64,000 bases of DNA from a virus (lineage: Duplodnaviria > Caudoviricetes), in the IMG/VR virus record IMGVR_UViG_3300025706_000022, positions 1 to 64,000 of that record; one strand, written 5' to 3'. Of the stretch, positions 3,786-51,634 are shown piece after piece. The translations under genes and the position numbers were made by a program. Each line of letters opens with the position of its first letter. The stretch's first letter is position 1. A model generated the notes under the pieces. It was not told the origin of the DNA and searched no databases. It saw only the letters and a list, made by a program, of their open reading frames with translations.

Positions 3786-5831
3786 TTAGAAAAGAATTTT
3801 AACAACACGAGTAAAACTACCACTAATACGACAGATCAGGCTATTACGCTGAGTACTAGAGAAGCCAAGACCACTAAGCTGGCGGTCTGACTCTTCAGTG
3901 CTCATCTTACTACCAACCATTTCCAACACCTTGCGGTGCTGATCAAGGTCTGGCTTAAGAAACTCGTTGAGGAAACCACGAGCCTTATCCTTATTGATAC
4001 AACCATTGATCATAAAGAAGTAGTGCTTATTACCCACCTTGTAGTCATCCCAGAAGTTAGGGGACAACATAATAGAGCTTACTTCTTGGAAGGTATTAGT
4101 AGGAATACCCCATGCATCACGGGAGGAAACACTTGCTTCAATCAATGGCTTAATCATCACATCGGTCTTACCATCAATCTTAGTTACAGCAATCTCTGCT
4201 ACAGCGATGTAACCACCTTGAGGTACAGCCTTATCATAAACAAGATGATAAATCTTACCAAGGACTTCTATTTCAACTTCAAAACCTACACCCTGAGAAC
4301 GCTTATTGAAGTTATTCACACGCAGTGTATAGATACCTGACCGCATAGTCTTAATTTTTTCGTAGAAGATGTTCTCTACAGGATGCTCCATCATACCATT
4401 GACGCCATTTGCATCTACATCAAGCATACCGCCATTAGGGGATTTACTACCACGATATGATGCGTAGTTAATACGACGACTACCTGGCTCTTGCATATGA
4501 AAATCAAGGTCATCTTTATATTCCCAAGCAAGGCGACAGCACACATCACCAGTTACATTACCACCTGCTTGTTTAACTCGTTCCTTGATTGAATCAGCAA
4601 AGCCACCGTTATATGACCAGGAAAACTTATTAGGCCACTTGAATAGATCAGGGGCAGTCGAATTCTTGGCGGTAATAAGACTAACCAAGTTACCTTGATG
4701 TGCGTTATCAATCATTACCTCCACCTTCTTTGCAGAGGGTAGGATATGTTCAATAAACTGATCAATTGTTACTTCATCAACTTTAGACAGTGACTTAGGC
4801 GCTTTGTTACCTGCCTCATTCAGCATACTATCAAACACATCAGTACTAAGATGCTTTACTGAACGATCTGCAAACAGAATATTGTTCACAGTAATATCGT
4901 TAATTGTTGCATAACGACGCTCTAGAGCAGAAACAAGACCTAGCTCTTCAAGCGTCTCTTTTGCCTTCTTAATCATTGATGCAGTTACAAGAGCAGTAGG
5001 TCGCTTATAATTAGCTGGTGCAACCTTTACTTCGTACTTCTTTACAGCGTCTTCAAGAGGTACATTCTCAGAGAGGTCTACTAGCAGAGTACCAATTACA
5101 CTATTACGAATACGAGCTACTGCAGAATTGGCAGTAAGCACTCGTTCCCATACAAATAGTTTAACATCCACACTATCTTGCTCAGCATATTGCTCAGCAT
5201 CAAGATATGCACATTTAAGGTTATAAAACTCCCTTACATTATGCAAATGCTCTGCACCACGATATAGAGTGTTTTGTGTAATGAGTTCCATTACAGTTTC
5301 AAGTGCATCTTCAGTGATACTATTTAATGCACGATACATCAAGTCAAAAGTAGACCGATGCTCACCCAGTTTAGAGTCAATCATGCCTTTACTACAGAAA
5401 TGCTTACCTAGAATATGTACAAAGAAGTGCTCCCAAGTAGCAATACCACCATTAACAAATGATTCAAATGACCTATTGGCACCAGCAGTCCTCTCAGTAT
5501 GCAAGAAGACATTTGAGATTTCACTGCTCTTAACAAGGGCAGACAACGCATCTGCAACTACTTGATAGCCACCCTCAGCCTGCACATCCCAAATACTAAC
5601 TACTTTACCATCAATAATTGCTACAGCACCACCAATAGCTCTAATGAATTGTTTACAACAGTTACAATCATGTTCTGTACGCTGACGATAAAGAGGGTTA
5701 GTACCTTCTGGGAATGAGCCAAGATAAGTATCCCATAATGCATCCTTAGATACAGCTACACGGAACATAGGATAGTCGCTCATACGGCCAAATTGGACTG
5801 CAACAGCTTGTTTAAAATCAATAAAGTTCAT
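3786..5831 (-). CDS. Large conserved phage protein with N-terminal HDCxCC motif and C-terminal YfaP/DUF2135-like beta domain
   Basis: RTEHDCNCCKQF; DDLDFHMQEP...LDVDANG...VENIFY...G.YTLRVNNF. Confidence 0.6.
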   Translation of the reverse strand: MNFIDFKQAVAVQFGRMSDYPMFRVAVSKDALWDTYLGSFPEGTNPLYRQRTEHDCNCCKQFIRAIGGAVAIIDGKVVSIWDVQAEGGYQVVADALSALVKSSEISNVFLHTERTAGANRSFESFVNGGIATWEHFFVHILGKHFCSKGMIDSKLGEHRSTFDLMYRALNSITEDALETVMELITQNTLYRGAEHLHNVREFYNLKCAYLDAEQYAEQDSVDVKLFVWERVLTANSAVARIRNSVIGTLLVDLSENVPLEDAVKKYEVKVAPANYKRPTALVTASMIKKAKETLEELGLVSALERRYATINDITVNNILFADRSVKHLSTDVFDSMLNEAGNKAPKSLSKVDEVTIDQFIEHILPSAKKVEVMIDNAHQGNLVSLITAKNSTAPDLFKWPNKFSWSYNGGFADSIKERVKQAGGNVTGDVCCRLAWEYKDDLDFHMQEPGSRRINYASYRGSKSPNGGMLDVDANGVNGMMEHPVENIFYEKIKTMRSGIYTLRVNNFNKRSQGVGFEVEIEVLGKIYHLVYDKAVPQGGYIAVAEIAVTKIDGKTDVMIKPLIEASVSSRDAWGIPTNTFQEVSSIMLSPNFWDDYKVGNKHYFFMINGCINKDKARGFLNEFLKPDLDQHRKVLEMVGSKMSTEESDRQLSGLGFSSTQRNSLICRISGSFTRVVKILF

Positions 5832-17763: not shown

Positions 17764-17848
17764 TGGTGCCCGTAGTGGGGATCGAACCCACATGACTTTC
17801 GTCGCTGCGTTTTAAGCACAGTGCCTATACCAATTCGGCTATACGGGC
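17764..17848 (-). tRNA. tRNA-Leu (anticodon TAA)
   Basis: Acceptor GCCCGTA/TACGGGC, anticodon arm CTGTG-CT TAA AA-CGCAG, long variable arm, TTCGATC loop, encoded CCA. Confidence 0.95.
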
Positions 17849-45052: not shown

Positions 45053-48000
45053 TTAGCCTATTCCATAGAAGCCTTTATCATGCTTCCAAAAATCAGGCGG
45101 TATATCTTCTAGAATATCCTCAGCTTTGAGAATATCCTGTTCAGTCATAAGTCTTCCACCAACTTTACTTTTTCCAGCTATTGGAATAATACCTTTTTCA
45201 ATGGCCTCTTCCAAATACTGATCATAAAGCTCTTTAGGTAATCCACGCTCACGCAGAAGATCTAATGTAGCCTTTACTGTATTTTTCGTAACAGCATCAG
45301 CATACATTTTTCTAATAGCCGTCTTAGCCTTAATCATATCACCAGCATTAGTGAAGAAAGCCGAAATATTCAACAAAGGTCGTTAGTCTTTGCCCGTTAC
45401 TGTCGAGTTAGTTAATAATTCTTCCAAGTATTACCAATTCGTATTTGACGAATGGTAGAAGGGTGCGATCCAAATTCTACAGCTATTTCTGCATCTAACT
45501 TTCCATTTTTGATACATTCTCGTATATAAGGTACATCCTCTGCAGTTATCTTTCTAGTCCTAGGTGCACCATTATAACGACCAGGGATAGTCAGACCTAG
45601 ATGCTTCCAGTTGTCACCAATCCTAATAGCGTTTATAGATTGCCTAGTAACACCGTATTCATCTGCAATCTCTTGATCTTTTTTGCCAGCAAGCATTAAT
45701 TTAATTATAGTAGGTATTTCTGACTCTACTAATACCGACTCAACCCTATGTGAACCGCGTGGCATTAACCCAGTATCGTATGCGTGCTGAACATTTTCAC
45801 TGCGAGTTGCCCATTCTAGATTAATTACATGGTTATGTAACCTATTCCCATCAATATGATTTACATCTGATTTAGAAAAGGGATTTGGTATAAAAGCCTT
45901 TGCAACCAACCTATGTAGCTTTTCTGTGCGTCTAACACCATTGTATGATATATGAAACTGCCTATAACCACCTACGATATTACCTAATGTGATGCACCCA
46001 TTAGAGCCACAATATAGTCTACCATGGTTACTAATAGAATAGTTTGCATCACCAACTTGTTTCCATTCTTCTTGCATGTTTACTCCTTGTGCTCGACAGC
46101 ACTGCTGCATATTACTATGCAGACTAGACTATATCTTCAAAGTAAATACATGTATTTACGATGTCCCCCGTTTCCACTCACTTGAGTGTACTGGCGCAAT
46201 GCCATAGTCGTTACACCTTCCTTATTTCTAAGGATTGGCTCGGTATTGTCCTAACGAAGGAGTTTCACCGAATTAGAGGGATTTAACCACAACAAAATTT
46301 ATCGTGGATACTAGTTGTTTCTATACCATTACGCTTACCCCATAAAGCAAAGTTCTTAACTAGAGTAGCATCGTTAGAGTGATTGCCATTGACGGCATAT
46401 GCCGTTCTAGCAGACACTGCATCAGCTACTTCATTTATTTTATTACTCTTATTAACTAACTCTTCAAACCAAGTGGGATCAGTTTTATTATCTACTTGAA
46501 TAATATTAGTGATCCAGTTACCATCAGCATCCTTATAATTAAGCCTTTCCTCAAATCGTTGGGTATAATATTGCTCCAACACACTACCATCAAGGTTCAC
46601 CCAAGGCACATGTGTCCAACTCTTAGGTTGCTTATTGGGTAACCCCAACTCAGCTATATCAATATCTTTGTAAACATCACCCACCTGAAGCTTAATATCA
46701 AACTTCTTACCAGTAGGTCTATAGCCCTTGTCCTTAACCCCAAATAGTATATCAGAGATGGTACTATCGGGTTTATATCCAGGTATACGTTTAAGGATTT
46801 GTTCTCGATAAGATACCTTTGGATCTATTCCTAGTATCCAAGCTAGCACAGGATGAGGCTTAGCCCCTTCTTTATACTCACCAAATGCGGTTTTCTTCAT
46901 AAGGCTTACCCAATCAAACTCAGCTTTAGAAGGCTTTGCTGTTAACAGAAAGTCTTGTGCCAGCCTACCGAAGAACTTAGTAAAATCATTCAAAATAGGT
47001 ACACGATTAGACATATGCTCAGACATGATTGCACCTATCTGAGCAAAATCTTTGGGCGTAACTACTTCATCATAATCCCTAGTAAGCTTCTCTACAAAAT
47101 CCTTTGTTTTAGGATCAAGGAACCATAAGTCAGACATCAAGTCATCACCTGGCCTAGTTCCACTATCAAATATGTCTTTGACCTGTTTACGAAGCTGCAT
47201 TAGTTCGTCTGCAGTATCTTGATCCCAACGTGCTATTTTAGCAGCACGGGCAGAGATTTCACCCAATACAGCATCGCGTTCCTCAGCTTTAATTACTAAG
47301 ACACCATCATCTTTACCTAAAGCCTTAGCTAATTTCTTTTCTACATTCATGGTAGCAGTTCTCTGTCCGGCGCCGTATAGAGAGACCATGTTATGCGCTT
47401 TTGACAATGTGTTAACAAGGGGTCGTTAGTCCCCTGTCATAATTTATTAGTAGTTCTTCCAGGTATTTCCTCTACGAATTTGGTTTATGGTTGCAGTTGC
47501 TACACCAAACATAGGTGCAATATCGCAATCACGTAATGTGCCAAATAAGCTTCGAATAACCGGTATATCTTCTCCAGTTAACTTCTTAACTGGGCCATTA
47601 CCTATAATCGGCTGTCTTTCAATAAATCGCCAAGTACGGTTACATCGAATATCATCAATTGTATTTGGGGCCACGTTATACTTTTTGGCAAGAGTAATAT
47701 TTCTATCACCAGCCTTTAAGGCATCAATAATTTCATGAACTTCTGTTTCTAGAAGGATATGCATATAGCTACCTTCTCCAGAAGCAATTAACCCTAATTT
47801 TACAGCATGCTCATTATTCTCTGTAGGAGTACACCACTCTAGGTTACTAGACTTATTATTAAGCTTATTACCATCAATGTGGTTAGCCCAGGGCTTACCA
47901 TCTACCCTAGGTATAAAGGCCCTAATAACCAATTTATGAACATCGATAGTTATCCTATCCTTACGAGAGGTAAACTGTATACTAACTTGTAAGTATCCTC

Positions 48001-51000
48001 TAGCAGTAATGAAGGGATTAAGAATGAAATCAGTGCTATTGTTGCGAATACGCCCCAGATTGCTGACACTATACATGCCTTCTGTGTCTGGGATAATACG
48101 AAATTCTTCTGTCATAATGACTCCATGGGTGTGTAAATTATGCTGCATATTACTATGCAGATCAGACTATATCTTCAACAAACAATGTTTGCTGTCCCGC
48201 GTTTCCACTAGACTTCTAGTGTATGAGATTCATAATCCGTTCTGGACCGTATTCTCTAGTCGTTGAACCTTCCAAAGAGTCCCCTCTAAGGCTTGGCTGC
48301 TGATTGTCCTTTAACGAAGGAGTTTCCAGCAATTAACGGGATTTTACAAGGCCACAAGTTTAGCCTTCCTTAAATCCTTCTCGCTTAGCCCCAATCTTTC
48401 ATTAAGCTTTTTAAACCTAGGATCATTAAAGGTCATAGAAGCAATCTCGTCATAGAGACGCCGCTTCTGGTTAGTAGGAACAACATTACTAAGTTCTGCT
48501 AATTGCTTATTCTTAGTAGACAATGCAATAATCTGAGCACCAGAAGATGAAGCATCTTGCTCTAGAGCTACTTTAATCATATAATTATCAAGTGGAGTAA
48601 GATCTTTGTAACTGCCACCTAAAAATTTATCAATGCGGTATTGTTCAAGGGCAAGCCTAAATAACTTTCCCTGTTCTTCAGCATCCGCCATCTGAACGAT
48701 CTTAGATTCAAGGATATCACGAATATCCTGAGGCTTTTGTCTTTCTATACGTTTACCTAATAAAACAAGATCAGCACGCCATTTATCTGCAATCTTCTGC
48801 CTACCAGTTTGAGAGAGACCATTAAAGCGTCCTTCAAACTCATCACTTAGGCCACCTAAGAAACCACCTATCTGGTCTTGTAGGTTATAATATCCATCAA
48901 TACCTAAGGGTTTAGCTTCTGGTGTATTTAAGAAAGGACGAAAGGACTCACCAGATTGTGGTCCAATGTAGCCGCTATCATATATGCGACCGCGATGATC
49001 AATGAAAGCGTGATTACTAAAAGACATATCGTTCTTAACATAATGTTCCATAGCCTTAAATCTATCGTATGCATCACCACGAGCAGTCATGTGATCACGA
49101 TAATGATTCAAATCATTAAAATACTTAGCCTTACCCTTATCGTCTTGGAAATCCAATAACTTTCTCGTAAACCCATAAAACTCAGGATCTACTTTATACT
49201 TACTATTGCTATACCAATTAAGGGCATCTGCTAATGGTTCGTCAATTAGCTCTGCAGGTATTTCAGTGAAACTACTTGAAGATGTAATTGGTATTTGTGT
49301 ATCATATCCGCCCTTAGCAAAATATGTTTTGAACCCAGGTTTAATATATAGTTGGTTATCATATCTATTATTCACACCAATACGATAGCCTACATCGATA
49401 GCACGATTAAGGTATGAGTAGTGCTTAATACGAGCATCGGTAATCCTAAGATTTACACTAAATGTATCGTAGTATTGACCAAAGTATTGACCACTCATAC
49501 GACTACGCATACGCCTTTTCTTAACACCAAAAGTATCTAGTGTATAAAATCCTACTTTTTGAGCATAATCTAAGATTTCTACACCTGCATCATACCATTC
49601 TTTTTTAGATCCACGAAAATTAGTAGTATTAAATAGATCTCTTCCTAATTCAATGGCTAGTTGATCCCTATCAGGGGCATCATCCATTGCTAACCGTTTA
49701 GCAAACCTCAAATAGAACTGCTGAGTTTCAAACTTACCTAATCCCTGAAATACTCTACGCATTTGAAGTTTCATAGGTAATTGTGTTTTTAAGAAGATAT
49801 CTACTGTAGAACGTAACTGTAGTGCTATAACGGGTAATTGTCTAGCTTCCCATAGATTACGCTCTTTAATATTAGCAATAAAATTCTTGCCCAAATCATC
49901 TAATTGTATAGGGCCAAGAACAGGATCAAGATACTCACCTTGCTTAATCTTGTAGAAGAAGTCAGAATTATTTCTTAACTGTGTCTCAATAAACTCTGAC
50001 ACGTTAGTAACACTATTCTTCATTTCTGAGTTAAGAACAGCCTTAAGATTACCCCAAGGCTTTCCTTGTTTACGAAAACGCTCAAATGTTACACGAAGAT
50101 TATCAGTGACAACTGCAGCCTCATTCATGCCTACAGACTTCTGTATTTCTATCTTGAAATCTTGTAGGAACTTCTTATCATCTGCGGTTAATACTGTGCT
50201 TTCATCAATAAGCCTAACAGCGCGTTTATCAGCAGCCATATTAGGTTGATAGATGCGGGCATCCTCTCTACGCTTAGTAATAGGATTATATATTAGCTGA
50301 TCTTCAGTTGGAGGGCTGTTTAGAACCCTATTCTTAGTACCAGCCTTTACATGAGGTAGAATACCACGATAGTTAGTAACACTTAAAGTACCATTTAGCT
50401 CACCAGACTGTAGTTTATAATACTCTACGAGTTTGCTAACGGCCTCTTTATCTCTAAGTATTTCAAGAGGGGATGTATATCCCAGTGTAAGTGTGTCCAG
50501 TCTTTCTTTTGCATTCGCGAATACTTTACTAGTAGCTTCTACGCTACCGTTATAACCACCTGCTGTATTATTATCACCAGTTAGTAGCTTAAGCTCATTG
50601 AGACCTACACTAGCACCCTTAGGTGTTATAAACCTCTCAGCTGTAAGCTCATTATTTTGGAACATCTTAAGGCGATGCATATCTCCTAGATGCATTAGCT
50701 GAATTCTATCTGGTTGTTTCTTTAACCAATCATTATAAGAAATAGTGTCATAAGGTGTTCCAGTAAAATAACTAGAGGCATACTTATCATAGGCTTCAAT
50801 CTCTGCTTCCGACATTCCAGCTGTATTACGGGCTCTAGTGGCTCTTACAGAATCAACTTTTGCTAAGTCTGCCCAAGCCTTAGGAACAGGTATTGTAGTA
50901 GACCTACACCTATAATGTTGTGGTGGTAAATGACCAGTATCAGAAACTGGATAGATATTTCCATCCATATATCTGCATACTGGAGTAGTTCTAGTGTCTA

Positions 51001-51634
51001 ATACCGCGGCGTATTGGTATCCTTTCAAGTATTTGCTATTCTCTGCATATACTTGCTGGTCTACTTGTGCATACACACTAGTAATCCCGGTAATAACAAT
51101 ACCTTCACTATGTACACGAGTAAGATTAAACGTTTTAGATACACGTTTAATCATTTGTTCTTCAGTTAAGCCTTCAGCTAGGCCGCCTCTAATAGCAGCC
51201 TCTATACGCTTACGCTCATTTAAGCCAATGCCTTTCCAACCTTCTGCAAGAGTCTTATTAGCATAGAGAGGTTGTGTTAATACTATCTCGCTAGCAATAG
51301 CACGAGTAGGTCTCTCAGGCTCAAAGAAATCTCTGAATGACTTATTGAGAGTATCTAAAGAACTTACTTGTGCTTGATTACCAAACTCAATAAAACTTTT
51401 TGCATTATGGCGATACGCTGTTTCTGTAAATCGCCTTATCTCTGCATCTGTTGCAGGGCTGATCGGCATTTCTTTTGAATAGTTTCCAGGGAGTATTGCG
51501 AGCATTCTAGTTTCATGGTCATCAACTAATGCTAATGTTTGTGCGGTAACTCGCTCTGTATAAAGTCGAGTCATAGCAGCATCATGTATGGTTTTATCAC
51601 CAGCAACCTCGACCGCTGTCTTTTCTACTTTCAT
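45053..51634 (-). CDS. MuF/SPP1-gp7 head protein fused to T7-type RNA polymerase; join(48362..51634, 46301..47404, 45053..45361), 1561 aa
   Basis: MuF motifs AVLD.RTT..C...DG and PPQHYRCRS; RNAP DHRGRIY; motif A DASSSGAQ. Splicing restores motif B RKA|SKAHNMVSLYG and motif C IHD|AF. Confidence 0.9.
45362..46300 (-). mobile_element. Group I intron 2 (IA-type), inserted in RNAP motif C
   Basis: P1 CCACGAU/GUUGUGG with U.G at the splice site; P3 TCCCTC/GGGGGA; P4 TCGGT/ACCGA; P7 GACTA/TAGTC; AAGATATAGTCT; terminal G. Confidence 0.93.
45412..46077 (-). CDS. Intron-encoded NUMOD4/HNH homing endonuclease
   Basis: LHRLVAKAFIPNP...VNHIDGNRLHN...NLEW; two C-terminal HTH-like repeats; start ATG 46077. 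Confidence 0.92.
   Translation of the reverse strand: MQEEWKQVGDANYSISNHGRLYCGSNGCITLGNIVGGYRQFHISYNGVRRTEKLHRLVAKAFIPNPFSKSDVNHIDGNRLHNHVINLEWATRSENVQHAYDTGLMPRGSHRVESVLVESEIPTIIKLMLAGKKDQEIADEYGVTRQSINAIRIGDNWKHLGLTIPGRYNGAPRTRKITAEDVPYIRECIKNGKLDAEIAVEFGSHPSTIRQIRIGNTWKNY
47405..48361 (-). mobile_element. Group I intron 1 (IA-type), inserted in RNAP motif B
   Basis: P1 AAGGCU/GGCCUU with U.G at the splice site; P3 TCCCGT/GCGGGA; AATTGCTGGAAA and AATCAGCAG; TCAACGACTA; AAGATATAGTCT; terminal G. Confidence 0.94.
47447..48115 (-). CDS. Intron-encoded NUMOD4/HNH homing endonuclease
   Basis: VHKLVIRAFIP...NHIDGNKLNN..SNLEWCT..EN..HA; two C-terminal HTH-like repeats; start ATG 48115. Confidence 0.92.
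   Translation of the reverse strand: MTEEFRIIPDTEGMYSVSNLGRIRNNSTDFILNPFITARGYLQVSIQFTSRKDRITIDVHKLVIRAFIPRVDGKPWANHIDGNKLNNKSSNLEWCTPTENNEHAVKLGLIASGEGSYMHILLETEVHEIIDALKAGDRNITLAKKYNVAPNTIDDIRCNRTWRFIERQPIIGNGPVKKLTGEDIPVIRSLFGTLRDCDIAPMFGVATATINQIRRGNTWKNY

Follow-up and report, generated by a model that had tools for sequence, protein, structure and literature searches.

The DNA analyzed here is a window of 64,000 nucleotides (nt) from the IMG/VR virus record IMGVR_UViG_3300025706_000022 (75,571 bases, rated complete by CheckV), which derives from an uncultured wastewater-sludge phage with a genome of ~75.6 kb. Its minus strand carries a gene encoding a T7-type single-subunit RNA polymerase (RNAP) fused to a MuF domain (henceforth MuF-RNAP), and two group I introns divide this gene into three exons. 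Exon 1 (48362..51634, 1091 codons) holds, in order, a MuF/SPP1-gp7 domain, the N-terminal part of the RNAP, DHRGRIY, motif A (EQDASSSGAQ) and the first Arg of motif B, and ends in ...DLRKA, the last codon being GCU. It is followed by intron 1 (47405..48361, 957 nt), by exon 2 (46301..47404, 368 codons), which runs from SKAHNMVSLYG, the remainder of motif B, to TSIHD with the catalytic Asp of motif C, by intron 2 (45362..46300, 939 nt), which has an HNH open reading frame (ORF) of its own (46110-45412), and by exon 3 (45053..45361, 102 codons and the stop), which extends from AFFTNAGD to FYGIG. When joined, 51634-48362, 47404-46301 and 45361-45053 form a single open frame of 1561 codons. We assign a probability of roughly 0.88 to the reading developed below, in which intron 1 is a mobile, HNH-carrying IA-type group I intron in the O-helix codons of a MuF-fused T7-type RNAP gene, the proposed splicing and homing included.

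Identity, boundaries and fold of intron 1

A scan of the whole window with 4227 Rfam families, on both strands, revealed two matches to the group I intron family (RF00028, gathering score 50 bits), both on the minus strand: one at 48413-48143 (99.7 bits, E 1.3e-24, full-length model match 1-253) and the other, in intron 2, at 46368-46105 (89.2 bits). Since the E value of 1.3e-24 holds for both strands of 64 kb and 4227 families, the intron 1 match is far beyond chance. A first-pass annotation, made from the letters of the window and its ORFs, had proposed a group I intron at exactly 47405-48361, and this covariance-model scan bears it out.

The 5' exon ends in ...GGAAGGCU at 48362 (GAU UUA AGG AAG GCU), and the intron starts with AAACUUGUGGCCUUGUAA at 48361. 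The internal guide sequence (IGS) GGCCUU (48353-48348) pairs with exon AAGGCU (48367-48362) in a P1 of 6 bp that places a U.G pair at the 5' splice site, and P1 pairing of this AAGGCU/GGCCUU type recurs in the introns that three related loci (L088, L089 and L093) carry at the same site. At the other end, 47405 is the terminal G (omega G) and exon 2 opens at 47404 with UCA AAA GCG CAU AAC AUG GUC UCU CUA UAC GGC. The base after the terminal G begins the codon aligned to residue 1127 of the homologue from phage DSS3_VP1, the uninterrupted gp28; by BLASTP, exon 1 aligns up to residue 1126 of that protein, exon 2 to 1127-1378 and exon 3 from 1379. Compared with P0004, a closer intact metagenomic homologue, the join of exons 1 and 2 falls between residues 1085 and 1086 with no gap or overlap. 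The proposed splice product, LRKA followed by SKAHNMVSLYG, is therefore gap-free with both intron-less proteins. The predicted ligated junction is GCU followed by UCA, that is GGAAGGCU joined to UCAAAAGCG, or in longer form GGAAGGCT joined to TCAAAAGCG; the predicted protein reads ...DLRKA and then SKAHNMVSLYG across it, with ...DLRKASKAHNMVSLYG as the spanning peptide. Because of the P1 U.G pair, the terminal G and the gap-free join to intron-less homologues, we delimit intron 1 to 47405-48361.

Splicing at a junction one or a few bases away has very little to recommend it. Joining exon 1 ...GC to G and UCA would also stay in frame and yield the same protein, and the intron of another locus, L090, is offset by one base at its 3' end; only the predicted junction, by comparison, has both the exon-terminal U.G and the terminal G and matches those of L088, L089 and L093. 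The L090 intron (4231-5215) lies at the intron 1 site, its guide AACCUUCC pairs the exon U with A, and one extra T stands between its terminal G and exon 2. Coverage of that contig is only 1.3x, so the offset may be a sequencing error. An intein at this place is excluded by an in-frame UAA at 48346-48344, at which read-through translation ends five codons into the insert. On the sequence evidence, the identification of 47405-48361 as a group I intron, its junctions and its placement in motif B are all supported.

The predicted ribozyme core (48143..48361, minus strand) comprises the P1 3' strand with the IGS, P3, P4, P5, P6, P7, P7.1, P7.2, P8 and P9. P3 is formed by UCCCGU (48341-48336) and GCGGGA (48200-48195), P4 by UGCUG/CAGCA, P5 by UCC(UU)/(AA)GGA and P6 by CC/GG. 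P7, which makes a pseudoknot with P3, pairs GACUA (48261-48257) with UAGUC (48169-48165) within AAGAUAUAGUCU, and the P9 hairpin (48160-48143, CUGCAUA-GUAA-UAUGCAG) has a GUAA loop. Checked helix by helix, all core helices are complementary; P2 is absent. The P1 pairing with its U.G wobble, P3, P4, P7 and the terminal G all occupy the minus-strand positions at which the first-pass annotation had placed them. Two covarying hairpins, P7.1 (GAGA...UCUC, inner GUCC/GGAU) and P7.2 (CACUAG/CUAGUG), follow the 5' strand of P7 and precede the 3' strand of P3. As P7.1 and P7.2 are the mark of subgroup IA, we classify intron 1, by its predicted fold, as an IA intron.

The structure is supported by covariation. 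We aligned intron 1 with 12 relatives, namely intron 2 and introns from EBPR siphovirus 1 and six metagenomic contigs. Across these 13 introns, standard pairs occupy 92.8% of cells, a share that drops to 30-41% once the 3' partners are displaced by 1-3 columns, and 33 of 50 pairs show compensatory change on both sides. None of 500 shuffles reached any of the observed covariation measures.

A further hairpin (47413..47439, minus strand) closes the intron after the endonuclease ORF, with the stem UGACAGGGG/CCCUUGUUA and the nine-base loop ACUAACGAC; a 7-nt spacer (47412-47406, ACACAUU) separates it from the terminal G at 47405. Such a 3'-terminal hairpin, with a UAACG-containing loop, covarying stems and 8-12 nt to the last G, is present in 9 of 11 tails of related introns and missing from the introns at site A of L088 and in EBPR siphovirus 1 (L003). 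ORF-less introns of 209-285 nt carry the tail hairpin right after P9, and the ORF of intron 1 is therefore an insertion in a peripheral loop.

This ORF (47447..48148, minus strand) spans 233 codons when read from its longest start at 48148. Its translation matches Pfam NUMOD4 (PF07463, 34.8 bits, cut-off 23.4, E 1.9e-8) and HNH_3 (PF13392, 28.4 bits, cut-off 24.8, E 1.2e-6), and aligns with I-HmuI (PDB 1U3E, E 4.5e-8) from query residue 15, the His of NHIDGN being matched to DHKDGN. With the ORF of intron 2 it shares 39% identity. By these similarities it is a predicted I-HmuI-like HNH homing endonuclease, which would be expected to nick the intron-less allele and drive homing. As the start codon, the ATG at 48148, which lies inside P9, was replaced by AUG 48115. 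The latter is preferred because GGAG precedes it (48124-48121, 5-nt spacer) and because it corresponds to residue 12, near the onset of the I-HmuI similarity; the likely product is thus a protein of 222 residues.

The interrupted polymerase gene

The MuF moiety is recognized as the Phage_Mu_F domain (Pfam PF04233) at exon 1 residues 143-248 (E 3e-13), and this fusion suggests that MuF-RNAP is packaged in the virion. For the polymerase moiety, BLASTP of the spliced product against T7 RNAP yields alignments to T7 residues 397-582 (E 5e-7) and 725-855 (E 1e-5), the second of which runs across the intron 2 junction. The translation of T7 gene 1 has DWRGR at 421, DGSCSG at 537, RSVTKRSVMTLAYG at 627-640 and HDSFG at 811. 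DHRGRIY, QDASSSG, the motif B residues R-K-A and S-K...Y-G on either side of intron 1, and IHD and AF on either side of intron 2 align with the T7 catalytic residues (DxRGR, D537, R627/K631/Y639 and H811-D812). The spacing of motif B equals that of T7, with R+4=K and K+8=Y (T7 R627-K631-Y639-G640), and the Met at K+4 is also common to both; the equation with R627, K631 and Y639 that the first-pass annotation had drawn is thereby verified on the translated T7 gene. Intron 1 interrupts the R-x3-K element between +2 and +3, where it separates the Ala codon from the Ser codon.

Across 40-69 homologues the catalytic motifs are invariant or nearly so. In motif B, the columns K, K, M, V, Y and G are invariant and the first Arg is conserved in more than 90%. 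Intact relatives measure 1460-1560 residues, contain both PF04233 and the Pfam RNA_pol domain (PF00940), and share 56-75% identity with the last 492 residues of exon 1. We modeled one of them, P0078 (56% identical over those 492 residues), with AlphaFold (AF2) from a 69-row alignment, which gave a model with a predicted local distance difference test score (pLDDT) of 83.9. In a fold search of the PDB, T7 and mitochondrial RNAP were its top matches (E ~3e-17, probability 1.00). Motif B lies within helix 611-626 of the model, which places the intron 1 site inside the helix corresponding to the O-helix, the nucleotide-binding helix. A profile of 40 homologues searched against PDB sequences returned only a marginal match to T7 (E 0.0087), in which the DxRGR and motif C segments were correctly aligned; it was the fold search that decided the matter. 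The equation with R627/K631/Y639 holds because the T7 translation, the alignment of the spliced product, the conservation among homologues and the fold match agree. We conclude that the host gene encodes a MuF-fused T7-type single-subunit RNAP.

Intron 2 also interrupts a catalytic motif. It follows directly upon the catalytic Asp of motif C, between TSIHD and AFFTNAGD, and its P1 pairs CACGAU with GUUGUG. This junction is collinear with residues 1378 and 1379 of the DSS3_VP1 protein and aligns with T7 IHDSFGT.

As called by the ORF finder, the gene is broken up into several ORFs of the minus strand. Exon 1 lies in an ORF of 1096 codons (51634-48344) with a portal-like ORF directly upstream; after it come, in order, the 233-codon NUMOD4/HNH_3 ORF, a 374-codon TTG-started ORF (47407-46283), the second HNH ORF, a 107-codon ORF (45376-45053), and ORFs of 264 and 394 codons. 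We take the last two, by position, to be the scaffold and major capsid genes, because DSS3_VP1 has a hypothetical gene and an annotated 'main coat protein' at the matching places. MuF-RNAP is thus situated between the portal-like gene and the presumed scaffold gene. No near-identical DNA was found in the phage collection; the identical intron-bearing allele is present in DNA contigs of an independent 2022 activated-sludge study (run X5). Elsewhere in the window, three tRNA genes lie on the minus strand at 798-871, 1357-1430 and 17767-17848 (Rfam RF00005, 54-66 bits).

Motif B among relatives and the case for splicing

IMG/VR contains at least 588 loci of the MuF-RNAP gene, of which 80 were retrieved. 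For a census of break points, the C-terminal part of exon 1 served as the query, and the 120 best cluster representatives were compared. Of these ORFs, 44 break inside motif B, at five or six points: after LRKA, the intron 1 site (5 ORFs); after the next K-A, nine bases downstream (13 ORFs); after the next Q (LRKAAKAQ; 1 ORF, P0003); after ...NMV (14 ORFs); after ...V-T-F (10 ORFs); and after ...Y-G (1 ORF). A further 3 ORFs break between AVNG and NHSND. By these break points motif B appears as a hot spot, with five insertion points within 14 codons. The site is also conserved in its DNA. Among 62 intron-less alleles, the 42-nt segment KAAKAQNMVTFYGA takes second place in nucleotide conservation (mean pairwise identity 0.79, gene mean 0.62), and the segments holding the AVNG-NHSND site and the IHD-AF site rank third and sixth; such conservation at insertion sites is the pattern expected of homing endonuclease targets.

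Individual loci carry these insertions in combination. At the intron 1 site, L088 (5743-7004) has an orthologous 957-nt intron that is 68% identical over 931 nt. A 21-nt exon (AKAQNMV) separates this intron from a 285-nt ORF-less one inside the Val codon, and a third intron lies between AVNG and NHSND. In L089 (7289-7751), a 209-nt ORF-less intron at the intron 1 site and a 221-nt ORF-less intron after YG enclose a 33-nt exon (TKMQSMVSFYG). L093 carries a 284-nt ORF-less intron at the intron 1 site and another intron after V-T-F. The polymerase part of L115 (IMGVR_UViG_3300028410_000014, minus strand 12221-10092) holds four group I introns: after RRLY, after RKAAKA, inside the NMV Val codon eleven bases on, and between AVNG and NHSND, the second and third being separated by an 11-nt exon, CAAAACAUGGU. 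The introns of L088, L089, L093 and L115 all score above the Rfam gathering score.

The pattern GGCT-N6-9-GGCCTT-N-TAAAAT was rejected as a census of the intron 1 site, since it is not site-specific: only 9 of its 52 IMG/VR matches (L091-L142) fall in the MuF-RNAP gene, 3 at the intron 1 site (identical over the 300 nt compared) and 6 nine bases downstream. In its RNA form, GGCU...GGCCUU-N-UAAAAU, it is also seen in other phage genes at what appear to be intron starts, with recurrent upstream peptides such as VAVMMLPLVLRA and GISLGSRSVFLA, and related introns may use one guide sequence in unrelated genes. Two loci have insertions of another kind just upstream of motif A, L007 (8260-8726, ~465 nt) and L010 (8015-8702, ~690 nt), for which Rfam gave no group I match and Pfam no family; that of L007 is an in-frame segment of ~150 residues with a DGYHRL motif.

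The micro-exons of 11, 21 and 33 nt in L115, L088 and L089 are in frame and retain invariant residues of motif B. As they keep these residues and could not be translated on their own, we regard them as the best available argument for splicing. They also bear on the possibility that the element no longer splices and that separate polymerase fragments assemble non-covalently, as in genes split by free-standing homing endonuclease genes: an exon 1 product ending in LRKAKLVAL, an exon 2 product begun at TTG 47407 and an exon 3 product from its own start. The separate calls of the ORF finder for 47407-46283 and 45376-45053 fit such fragments, as do RNA-library contigs that keep the intron across splice sites (see below). 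Against them, exons of 11-33 nt in relatives would be untranslatable alone, the 20 nt before TTG 47407 contain no Shine-Dalgarno sequence and consist of the conserved intron tail, one break would separate R from K in the O-helix and another would come directly behind the catalytic Asp, and the full ribozyme core and its P1 to the exon are conserved and covarying. We consider assembly from fragments very unlikely.

Two interruptions in catalytic motifs could likewise be those of a decaying pseudogene with relic introns, in a phage that relies on another RNA polymerase or the host enzyme. This too is very unlikely, for the exons keep all invariant residues of motifs A, B, C and DxRxR, the joined frame stays open for 1561 codons, the intron cores equal those of relatives in score, the genome is rated complete, and the identical allele recurs in the independent study DNA (X5).

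Several observations weigh against a functional intron in a polymerase gene. A P10 can be read from the sequence, but it spans only 3 bp, in which UUG of the intron pairs with exon CAA (+2 to +4). The separate exon ORFs have no match to PF00940, so that membership in the RNAP family rests on the joined product and on homologues; intron 1 interrupts the most recognizable RNAP segment, and the intact homologues P0002, P0004 and P0009 match PF00940 at 44-49 bits (cut-off 22), with the best stretch covering the intron site. Two activated-sludge RNA libraries (X4 and X11) contain the phage, and their contigs cover exons and introns alike. The 5' splice site is crossed unspliced in contigs of both and the 3' site in X4 (where the X11 contig reaches just 12 nt into the exon), and no contig in either library joins the exons across 47405-48361. 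These contigs may stem from pre-mRNA or from phage DNA carried into the libraries, and minority forms are lost at the contig level; they therefore neither support nor refute splicing. One X4 contig (depth 2.8) joins 45195 to 46298, with 27 letters on the short side; at one end this joint comes within 3-4 nt of the 5' boundary of intron 2, at the other it lies 166 nt inside exon 3, and we did not count it as a splice.

The intron's sequence, its covariation-supported structure, its junctions and the identities of its host gene and endonuclease are established. As for catalysis, timing and homing, we infer the following course for a spliced, mobile intron 1. The late pre-mRNA would fold into the ribozyme, an external guanosine would attack after U48362, held by the P1 U.G pair, and the freed exon would then attack after the terminal G at 47405, ligating GCU to UCA. 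The polymerase of 1561 residues would be translatable only once introns 1 and 2 are both out, while translation of unspliced RNA would stop at the UAA within intron 1. The I-HmuI-like nicking endonuclease would spread the intron by cutting, in co-infecting relatives, the alleles that lack it.

It is conceivable, if on present evidence doubtful, that motif B is the hot spot of an arms race, in which intron HNH enzymes cut un-invaded or differently invaded virion-RNAP alleles of co-infecting relatives, insertion immunizes an intron's own site, and the five-point, micro-exon mosaic results. If this were so, the yield of packaged polymerase would depend on how efficiently two to four splicing reactions proceed.

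Relation to known systems

The first-pass annotation knew of no intron in a single-subunit RNAP gene. A full-text literature search found no report of one in a T7-type single-subunit phage RNAP gene; the cases it brought up concern thymidylate synthase, DNA polymerase, terminase or jumbo phages only. The insertion site is not peculiar to this phage: motif B is also broken in 44 of the 120 closest relatives. Novelty is tempered as well, for HNH introns in polymerase catalytic motifs are a known pattern that includes the virion RNAP gene of phage PhiPA3 (PMC11620839). In the passages of a survey of MuF and polyvalent proteins that deal with RNA polymerase, virion RNAP modules are described only in N4-like phages and prophages, and no MuF-RNAP fusion appears there.

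The T7-family single-subunit RNAP joins the phage genes that host mobile group I introns. Gene callers miss the polymerase in this state, and GenBank and IMG records list a 'head protein', an 'HNH endonuclease' and a 'hypothetical protein' in its place. EBPR siphovirus 1 (JF412302, 2011), the closest GenBank phage, whose protein is 55.7% identical across the final 513 residues of exon 1, is such a case: its gp47 'head protein', gp48 'HNH endonuclease' and gp49 'hypothetical protein' (L003 = JF412302.1, 25771-31144) correspond to exon, intron ORF and exon. Its sole intron, an unannotated insertion of 850 nt, lies inside the Val codon after ...NMV, seven codons downstream of the intron 1 site, and scores 40.5 bits with RF00028 (E 2.9e-8), below the gathering score of 50. 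In DSS3_VP1 and DSS3_PM1 (Naomviridae), Ruegeria phages and the nearest cultured kin, the corresponding gene (MN602266 gene 00028, 1463 residues, 'minor head protein-like protein') is uninterrupted and likewise lies between portal and coat genes. The DSS3_VP1 protein (L004 = MN602266.1, 21242-25633) is 32.6% identical to the region before motif B (E 1e-61) and, because it is collinear with the three exons, is most likely an intron-less MuF-RNAP homologue. DSS3_VP1 is a cultured dU-DNA roseophage with a reported intron in its terminase gene, in a paper that mentions neither RNA polymerase nor gene 00028 (PMC8323127).

For the host gene, the nearest published parallel is the gp210 intron of PhiPA3, which lies in a β-subunit gene (gp211/209) of the multisubunit virion RNAP; its HNH enzyme nicks the intron-less phiKZ allele and confers a competitive advantage in co-infection (PMC11620839). 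Both cases combine a group I intron and an HNH endonuclease at a conserved site of an RNAP gene. There, however, the enzyme is a two-barrel multisubunit RNAP of a nucleus-forming jumbo phage, whereas here it is a single-subunit RNAP of a ~75-kb phage. If the endonucleases described here act on co-infecting relatives as in PhiPA3, they would bear on phage-phage competition in wastewater communities. Introns predicted in phiKZ itself showed no splicing in long-read transcriptomes (PMC10914365). Bodo saltans virus has several self-splicing introns in its RNAP genes (PMC5871332). As in MuF-RNAP, they cluster in catalytic motifs and sometimes leave very short exons, but in a multisubunit rather than a single-subunit enzyme.

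The element itself has close counterparts among the Bacillus phages SPO1, SP82 and Bastille, which share with this phage an IA-type intron with an HNH (NUMOD4/HNH_3) endonuclease in a conserved catalytic region of a polymerase gene. Introns of the I-HmuI family (I-HmuI, I-BasI) reportedly occupy nearby but different positions in the DNA polymerase genes of these different phages. Their host gene encodes a family A DNA polymerase, in contrast to the MuF-fused T7-type single-subunit RNAP here, and in intron 1 the ORF follows P9, ahead of the terminal hairpin. We know of no report, for the SPO1, SP82 or Bastille introns, of a site density like that seen here, with five sites in 14 codons and micro-exons. 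The O-helix codons thus offer a compact natural system for target choice, competition between introns and splicing across micro-exons. Knowledge of the group I mechanism is left unchanged: intron 1 is an ordinary mobile group I element, such as has long been known from phage genes for polymerases and nucleotide metabolism, and what is new is the host gene and the multi-site, micro-exon mosaic of its family rather than the intron mechanism.

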